A DNA stretch of 48,312 nt from Omnitrophica bacterium GWA2_41_15 (GCA_919902485.1 CAKKRB010000023.1:1-48312), one strand, 5' to 3'. Shown: positions 46,122-47,983, counted from the stretch's first letter. The notes: generated by a model from the letters alone, not told the origin. Numbers and translations: made by a program.

Positions 46122-47285
46122 TTATAACAGACCTTTTAACTTATTCTTTAATTCTTCGAGTTCTGCAGCATCTGGCACCCACTGTATCTTCAAACCCTTT
46201 ATAAGCAATTCAAATTTAGAAGCCTCCAGAATATTTTCTATATCACCTATACTCTGGCCTCCCCATCCATAAGATCCGAATGCTATGCCCACCCTGTTCT
46301 TAGGAGCGAGGCCTTTTAGGTAAGTAAGAAACGCCGATACCGTAGGAAGCATGCCGTTATTTAAAGTCGGGGACCCAACACATATATATTTTGCCTCCAG
46401 AATAGAAGCCGCCACATCAGATATATGGCTGGCCTGCAGATTCCTTATTTCACACGGTATGTCTTTTCCTTCAAAAACATCTTTTATCGCGTATGCCATC
46501 TTTTCAGTGCTGTGCCACATTGTATCATATATAATAACAGCCTTTTTCTCGCACTCGTTATCCGCCCATTTCTTATAAAGCCCTATTATATCTTTTATAT
46601 GGCTCCTCCAGATAAGCCCATGGCTCGGGGCAATCATATTTATATCCAGGCCTGAAACAGCTTCCAGCGCTTTACTTACCTGGGCGCCGAATGGTAACAC
46701 AATGTTCGCATAATACTTCGCTGCCTCAATTCGCACCCTGTCCCATCCGAATTCATCATCAAATCGTTCACAAGACGCAATGTGCTGGCCAAACGCGTCA
46801 TTCGGTAAAAGCAGCTTTTCTTCCGGAATATAAGTCGCCATTGAATCAGGCCAGTGGACCATCTGCATTAATACAAAATTCAGATTTCTCTTACCTATAT
46901 TAATAGAATCGCCTGTGGTGACGACTTTAAACTTCCAATCTTTTTTAAAATGCTTCTTAAGGCCTTTTTCACCATTAGGAGAACAGATAATTACCGCAGT
47001 TTTTGCTATATCCATAATCTCAGGAATAGAACCTGAATGGTCCATCTCTGTATGGTTTGATATAACATAGTCTATTTTGGATGGGTCTATTAACTTTTTT
47101 ACCCTCTCCAGCATCTCTTCAAACATATAATGTTTGACTGTATCTACCAAGGTAATTTTTTTGTCTATTATTAAATACGCATTATACGTAGATCCAAGCT
47201 GCGTAGAATACCCGTGAAAATTCCTCAGGTCCCAGTCAATAGCTCCCACCCAATATATGCCTTTTTTAATTTCTAACGGTTTCAT
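46122..47285 (-). CDS. fprA: flavodiiron protein (type A flavoprotein, O2/NO reductase)
   Basis: H-x-E-x-D-H motif (NHTEMDHSG) in a metallo-beta-lactamase-like domain, plus a C-terminal flavodoxin domain. The ATG at 47285 overlaps the rubredoxin TGA (ATGA). Confidence 0.9.
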
Positions 47286-47452
47286 ATAATTATTCCCTCT
47301 TTTACGAATTCGCTTTTTGCTGCGCCGCAAACAGGGCAAAGCCACGAATCAGGTATGTCCTCAAACGCAGTACCAGGCTGTATGCCTCCATCAGAATCGC
47401 CTATAGCCGGATCATATATATAACCGCATACTGTGCATTTATATTTTTGTAT
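47282..47452 (-). CDS. rubredoxin (domain) lacking a canonical start codon
   Basis: Not in the track. (I)[55 protein letters not shown]. There is no ATG/GTG/TTG between the in-frame TAA at 47470..47468 and the first CxxC. The only candidate start is ATA 47452, 4 nt after GGAGGAG. Confidence 0.7.
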
Positions 47453-47467
47453 AACTCCTCCTTCAGC

Positions 47468-47983
47468 TTAAACAGCTTCTCTTTTAATAAAGGTAGGCGC
47501 TGTATCAGGCGTTGCGCCGCGTTTTACCTGATGATAATAATCATATGTCATTGGTTTTCCTATCTTCAATATCTTTGAATCAGCCACTTGTCCTAGAAAA
47601 AGCGTATGAGTGCCGCAATCAAGCTGATTCATGACTTTTGCCTCAAAGTAACAGAGCGCATTATCCAGCGCCACAGGACAAAGTGAATCTAACTTTATAA
47701 ATTTTGTATCTTTGAATTTATCTTCTACCCTGCCTGATTTGAATCCGAATTTTCCTATAAAACTTAAAGGCGTCTCTTCCGCCAATATAGATACGCTGAA
47801 CCTTTTGCTCGATTCTATATATTCATGGGTCAGGTTCTTTTTATTGATGCTTACGGCGATAGTGATAGGTTCGCTCGTTATCTGAAAAACAGTATTCGCT
47901 ATCTGGCCATTAAGAAGACCACCTTTATTTGAGGATACCACGTACATCCCATAGCCTATATTATGTAATACATTCGGATCCAT
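47468..47983 (-). CDS. flavin reductase-like domain protein (N-terminal part of an Hrb-like protein)
   Basis: 171 aa, split-barrel flavin reductase pattern, ending ..MTYDYYHQVKRGATPDTAPTFIKREAV. It is in frame with the rubredoxin across one TAA. Confidence 0.75.
   Translation of the reverse strand: MDPNVLHNIGYGMYVVSSNKGGLLNGQIANTVFQITSEPITIAVSINKKNLTHEYIESSKRFSVSILAEETPLSFIGKFGFKSGRVEDKFKDTKFIKLDSLCPVALDNALCYFEAKVMNQLDCGTHTLFLGQVADSKILKIGKPMTYDYYHQVKRGATPDTAPTFIKREAV

Follow-up and report, generated by a model that had tools for sequence, protein, structure and literature searches.

The 48,312-nt stretch of DNA analyzed here (hereafter, the window) carries a flavin reductase gene (FR), a rubredoxin (Rd) ORF and fprA, followed by a rubrerythrin gene (Table 1). 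The FR gene, whose product is the counterpart of the N-terminal domain of fused Hrb proteins and has 1i0r as its nearest solved structure (E 2.5e-43), ends with a TAA stop codon (47470..47468), and the Rd frame is the FR frame, resuming directly past this TAA. The Rd ORF covers the PF00301 rubredoxin profile of Pfam completely (positions 1-47 of 47, E 1e-24), encodes the CxxC pairs CTVC and CPVC and carries neither frameshift nor stop over its 56 codons; its TGA (47284..47282) overlaps the ATG of fprA (47285..47283) as ATGA. No ATG, GTG or TTG is present from the TAA to the first CxxC of Rd. An earlier note on this DNA had described an FR ORF ending with TAA, a complete start-less rubredoxin in the same frame and the overlap of its TGA with the ATG of fprA, and our analysis confirmed all of these features. 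ATA is indeed the sole start-like codon, as the note proposed, but its spacing had to be revised, since it lies 2 nt past GGAGGAG (4 nt past the GGAGG core) and not 4 nt past GGAGGAG. With a TAA between its two domains, the window does not encode an Hrb protein, which holds both domains in one polypeptide; nor does it encode a usual stand-alone rubredoxin with a canonical start behind a ribosome-binding site, the Shine-Dalgarno being present but the codon being ATA.

Table 1. Features of the flavin reductase-rubredoxin-fprA region (positions in the window)
Feature	Position	Strand	Description
FMN flavin reductase gene (FR)	47468..47983	minus	171 aa; PF01613 (E 6.6e-30, residues 7-147)
Spacer GCTGAAGGAGGAGTT	47453..47467	minus	15 nt, former interdomain linker; Shine-Dalgarno AAGGAGG at 47463..47457
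ATA at the Rd start position	47450..47452	minus	derived from ATG (G>A)
Rubredoxin ORF (Rd)	47282..47452	minus	56 codons, intact; both CxxC pairs
fprA, class A flavodiiron protein	46122..47285	minus	387 aa; PF19583 (ODP), PF00753, PF00258 (flavodoxin)
Rubrerythrin gene	45474..46046	minus	190 aa, GTG start; PF02915 and PF21349; next gene, same oxidative-stress operon

An alternative genetic code was considered and rejected: TAA is the most frequent stop of the long ORFs of the window (22 of 42), therefore the standard code applies, and ATA is a conserved Ile codon inside rubredoxin.

Operon neighbours and upstream region

The FR-fprA gene order is maintained in relatives, and FprA is presumed to be the acceptor of the rubredoxin electrons. 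Past fprA, the order is rubrerythrin, FMN reductase, a second rubrerythrin-like gene, glutaredoxin and Ogg. In the relatives L082, L086, L003, L005 and L007 (loci are designated by L numbers), rubrerythrin starts with an ATG that overlaps the TGA of fprA as ATGA; in the lineage of the window, the rubrerythrin GTG (46044..46046, minus strand) is preceded by a new AAGGAGGTG. Taken together, the translation signals of the operon (ATA of Rd, shifted Rd stop, GTG of rubrerythrin) have been reworked in this lineage. A perfect palindrome with a 20-bp stem (46066..46111) lies between fprA and rubrerythrin, in about 75 nt of additional intergenic sequence that only the window and L001 contain, and has no second copy within the window. 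Since it lacks a U-tail on the coding strand, it is less likely a terminator than a hairpin acting in mRNA stabilization or processing, or a small insertion.

On the other side of the locus, the ATG of FR is not preceded by any Shine-Dalgarno (47984..48025, minus strand). A promoter-like pair, TTGCAA-17 nt-TATCTT, ends 7 nt 5′ of this ATG, which suggests that the FR mRNA may be leaderless; a promoter scan of the region upstream of FR did not flag this candidate. An inverted repeat, CTAGT-N6-ACTAG, spans the -35 hexamer of the candidate promoter and could be a putative operator. The upstream region (47984..48025) is kept in L083 and L085, and L084 has an insertion bearing GGAG. In L083 (369..1703), L082 and L089, a gene encoding a Pyr_redox_2 + Rubredoxin_C protein (NADH:rubredoxin oxidoreductase-like) with an HD-domain gene, or a gene encoding a hybrid-cluster (Prismane) protein, is found directly 5′ of FR. 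As the window terminates inside an HD-domain gene, a second rubredoxin reductase may be located just beyond its end.

Fused, split and reductase-only orthologues

Orthologous loci were retrieved by scanning a single genome from each species, which provided 80 loci, and close relatives were added by protein search and contig look-ups. The closest genomes are MAGs of Candidatus Omnitrophota. Among the classified loci, 56 have the Hrb architecture, with FR and Rd encoded by a single ORF of about 230 aa, nine have FR and Rd split and 20 carry FR without any adjacent downstream rubredoxin. Most orthologues are single FR-rubredoxin proteins of 229-231 aa encoded next to fprA and rubrerythrin, which bears out the link to Hrb drawn in the earlier note. 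Two distant loci have other arrangements: L075 (3704..3850) carries a fused gene and an extra free rubredoxin, and L070 (2300..2971) carries two tandem FR-rubredoxin copies.

The split clade nearest to the window includes six members (L009, L082, L083, L084, L085 and L086) retrieved from UBA, Logan, ENA and JGI data. All six have the junction GTT TAA GCT GAA GGA xxx xTT ATG CAA AAA TAT AAA TGC. The spacer is conserved in these six loci, and that of L084 holds a second in-frame TAA; therefore, it is non-coding in the split clade. The first TAA is common to the window and to seven other independent, related assemblies that originate from different projects, which excludes the sequencing error at TAA that the note had envisaged. 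At the position of the ATA of the window, ATG is found in the split loci L009 and L082-L086 as well as in the fused loci L003, L005, L007 and L089, and gene callers assign the Rd of the relatives to a gene of its own (53-56 aa). What the note had set against its own reading of the junction, orthologous rubredoxins that are independent and start canonically, is thus observed, with ATG at the equivalent position. Because the orthologues have ATG, the start-less Rd results from an ATG>ATA change in a single lineage, affecting an ordinary split gene, and is not a feature of the fission itself.

The nucleotide identity of FR is mosaic among the window, L082, L083, L085 and L087. For example, successive 100-nt blocks of FR show 96, 80, 82, 96 and 100% identity between the window and L083. 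This suggests that strains of the split clade may recombine in FR.

Origin and age of the split

A neighbour-joining tree based on the FR domain places the split clade, as a monophyletic group, within the fused loci L002-L008, and the split state is derived from the fused state. L089, the closest of the fused genes (88% aa identity), has GTT GTT CAA AGC AAA GGA GAA GCT ATG in this region. The codon aligned with TAA is CAA (Gln) in L089 as well as in the fused L005 and L007, so a single C>T transition (CAA>TAA) accounts for the fission. Two other loci reveal independent fissions. In L079, the GAA found in the fused sister L073 has become TAA (GAA>TAA), and AAGGAG and ATG are likewise present; in L081, whose sister L074 is fused, stop and start overlap as TAATG.

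The synonymous divergence (dS) of FR reaches about 0.8 across the split clade. The dN/dS of Rd is 0.03-0.25 within this clade and 0.12-0.20 between the window and its relatives; that of FR, compared to relatives other than L009 (which was left out because of masked N bases), is 0.09-0.14. Since the dN/dS of Rd resembles that of FR, the split rubredoxin is a functional gene in the clade. Among the explanations proposed in the note, a recent fission with re-initiation is therefore retained for the fission but not for its recency, the split being clade-wide with an FR dS of up to about 0.8, and a pseudogenizing nonsense mutation is contradicted by the purifying selection acting on the Rd of the clade. 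Overall, these comparisons indicate that the TAA corresponds to an established gene fission rather than to an error, a read-through site or a fresh pseudogenization.

The ATA codon

The ATA allele is private to the window and L001, a 28.9-kb contig from Hainich groundwater (ENA ERZ1292640, about 19x according to the contig name) that has identical TAA and ATA codons. L001 encodes exactly the same FR protein as the window, and its rubrerythrin is likewise called as 190 aa. Since L001 and the window differ by one SNP (window 46917) in 3,845 nt and by their contig ends, they are separate assemblies. A pattern scan of JGI metagenomes did not reveal any other ATA allele, its sole return being L086, which has ATG. 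ATA corresponds to a derived G>A change specific to this lineage.

Along the branch of the window, codons 1-49 of Rd underwent five synonymous and three nonsynonymous changes, namely M1I, P20S (47395..47393) and V38L (47341..47339), compared to a neutral expectation of about 79% nonsynonymous changes (binomial p ~0.01, our own estimate); the branch dN/dS of Rd is about 0.1-0.16. Because its ORF is intact and its nonsynonymous to synonymous ratio is 3:5, Rd has not been inactive for long. Two of the nonsynonymous changes affect conserved positions (among 72 rubredoxins, 66 share the Pro of P20 and 57 the Val of V38), which hints at a relaxed constraint. The window includes seven GGAGG-N4-ATA sites in total. 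None of the six besides that of Rd is a gene start: five are inside coding sequences, and the frame of the sixth ends after only four codons.

Shine-Dalgarno motifs in fused genes

The GGAGG motif is already found in the linkers of fused relatives. An in-frame ATG is located at codon -5 from the first Cys in 33 of the 56 fused genes. A Shine-Dalgarno match (at least 5 nt at -17..-4) accompanies this ATG in 26 of these 33 genes, compared to only two of the 23 genes devoid of it (one of these two has GTG); the association is strong (Fisher p = 2.9e-7), although the genes are phylogenetically related and the p value therefore overstates their independence. The background rate of such matches is 3.9% of the 14-nt windows in the FR coding part. 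Furthermore, the motif occupies two codon registers, GGA-GGN (Gly-Gly) and AAG-GAG-GTN (Lys-Glu-Val), and where the linker holds Gly-Gly, its first Gly is encoded by GGA in all 11 cases, compared to 22% GGA elsewhere. The two registers and the GGA bias point to a selection acting on the nucleotides of the linkers, which would constitute an internal ribosome-binding site, even if relatedness inflates the statistics. The start signal of Rd would therefore probably predate the split, and the two further fissions (L079 and L081) fit such a pre-existing internal start.

Loss of rubredoxin in relatives

In L087 (JGI 3300038438, 1040..1070), the whole Rd cistron is cleanly deleted and the FR stop is located 4 nt 5′ of the ATG of fprA. 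Between L087 and the window, identity is only 87% over the whole FR but reaches 99% over the 100 nt that close FR and over the 204 nt that open fprA. In the window, the segment that L087 lacks is bounded on either side by the direct repeat AAAAGAG, which suggests that the Rd of L087 was lost by deletion between repeats. The sample of L087 also contains the rubredoxin-bearing variant L085. Other loci carrying FR only include the close relatives L088 and L092/L093 as well as whole clades. Considering both the deletion in L087 and the frequency of FR-only relatives, the rubredoxin encoded at this locus seems dispensable.

Discussion

Taken as a whole, these results indicate that the locus is a split version of an Hrb-type gene, whose flavin reductase and rubredoxin would feed FprA. 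According to two papers (PMC12288474, PMC5640608), the Hrb of Moorella thermoacetica is encoded by an rbr-fprA-hrb operon and transfers NAD(P)H electrons to a flavodiiron protein. Like it, the locus of the window combines an FMN flavin reductase domain with an [Fe(SCys)4] rubredoxin domain and is adjacent to fprA and rubrerythrin, and it presumably has the same job. However, its domains are encoded by separate cistrons, with a TAA and a 15-nt spacer between them, and its Rd cistron has ATA where those of relatives have ATG. The locus also resembles the chains of Desulfovibrio gigas (ROO) and Clostridium acetobutylicum, in which a free small rubredoxin links an NAD(P)H-dependent flavoprotein to a class A flavodiiron protein, and the genes of such three-component NADH:rubredoxin oxidoreductase chains are clustered as well. 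The reductase of these chains is nevertheless a Pyr_redox_2 FAD enzyme and not a PF01613 flavin reductase, and the free rubredoxin of the window differs by having arisen from the splitting of a fusion. Regarding the start codon, the non-AUG starts of the infC type (ATT in infC) are conserved and regulatory, unlike the ATA of the window, which is restricted to one lineage and not conserved among orthologues. A closer precedent is provided by Listeria rsbW, a downstream translationally coupled cistron in which a single ATG>ATA change, found in natural and in selected variants, lowered translation without abolishing it (PMC13068326). The locus can therefore be considered as a modest variant of the known Hrb-FprA system, carrying a start change that has a precedent.

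Several explanations can be considered for a rubredoxin ORF devoid of canonical start. Read-through or recoding of the TAA would produce a fused Hrb and would not need any separate start; its product, estimated at about 228 residues in the earlier note, would in fact have 233. The fact that the two ORFs share their frame agrees with this explanation but is a legacy of the fused ancestor. Two in-frame stops separate FR from Rd in L084, the second of which contradicts read-through, and TAA is the commonest ordinary stop of the window. This TAA is followed by a G, an efficient terminator context in E. coli. Moreover, the RNA of the junction does not have any significant fold (z = -0.7 for the window and -0.2 for L082), a Rfam scan of the whole window returned zero matches, and neither tRNA nor suppressor tRNA was found in the window. 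We consequently regard read-through as extremely improbable. An erroneous A at position 47450, introduced by consensus calling or assembly, or an A carried by only a minor part of the population, with ATG as the true start, is somewhat less improbable but still unlikely. Only this base separates the window from every relative at the start codon, and both assemblies that carry ATA come from one aquifer system and maybe from one population. However, these two separate assemblies, one of them with a coverage of about 19x, concur on this base, and the operon carries other private changes of the same lineage.

The two remaining explanations consider ATA as genuine. The change may have silenced Rd recently, FR and FprA relying on another rubredoxin or on none, and the ORF would be intact because too little time has elapsed. 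Every relative retains ATG, AUA initiates at only 1-2% of the AUG level in E. coli (bioRxiv 10.1101/063800), Rd is deleted from L087 although the flanking sequences nearly match those of the window on either side, FR-only lineages are common, and P20S and V38L affect conserved sites. In addition, an output of a few per cent of the normal amount of Rd may be functionally nothing. However, the 3:5 ratio rejects neutrality for the branch taken as a whole and would confine the silencing to about the last 30% of this branch. Furthermore, no frameshift or stop has appeared in the 56 codons, the Shine-Dalgarno is still perfect and no second rubredoxin is encoded within the 48-kb window. Such an incipient loss is a real possibility, to which we give about one chance in three. 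We slightly favour, with about an even chance of being right, the view that residual Rd is still made by weak initiation at AUA. The low initiation measured at AUA in E. coli and the residual translation of the Listeria rsbW variants agree with this view.

The comparisons retrace the history of the locus as follows. The CAA>TAA change in the linker occurred in the ancestor of a small clade of uncultured Omnitrophota and cut an Hrb-type gene in two. The Rd half remained expressed from a Shine-Dalgarno and an in-frame ATG, which the linker probably carried before the split and which the other members of the clade still use. Later, and as indicated by the ATG of all relatives, this ATG changed to ATA in the lineage of the window. 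From then on, we infer that Rd would be made only by near-cognate initiation at AUA, giving fMet-QKYKC... at a small fraction of its former level. This initiation would be aided by the perfect AAGGAGG and by the ribosomes that terminate 15 nt upstream, termination-coupled re-initiation at ATA being possible. The small amount of Rd would carry electrons from FR to FprA and rubrerythrin.

The Shine-Dalgarno and ATG found in fused genes suggest that Hrb genes may give two proteins. In-frame internal starts that produce two proteins from one bacterial gene have been mapped by retapamulin Ribo-seq (bioRxiv 10.1101/520783). Like such dual-product genes, the fused relatives carry a Shine-Dalgarno and an ATG at the boundary between domains; unlike in them, internal initiation is proposed here from sequence statistics, and our literature search did not find any report of internal initiation in Hrb genes or rubredoxin fusions. 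We tentatively propose, while considering the opposite as more probable, that many Hrb fusions are two-product genes encoding a free Rd besides the fusion, and that free Rd has been tuned down through AUA in the window. If true, this would explain how at least three linkers were split by nonsense mutations without loss of rubredoxin.

Our results do not change the knowledge of the O2/NO-detoxifying pathway itself. However, the Rd ORF was skipped by gene calling in L001. Since gene callers skip it, metabolic reconstructions of this Omnitrophota lineage may wrongly omit, or wrongly assume, the electron carrier of FprA and rubrerythrin. More generally, this family of loci illustrates, in natural populations, the stages of the life cycle of a domain fusion, whose order we infer to be: fused, fused with an internal start, split, split with a weakened start and, finally, deleted.
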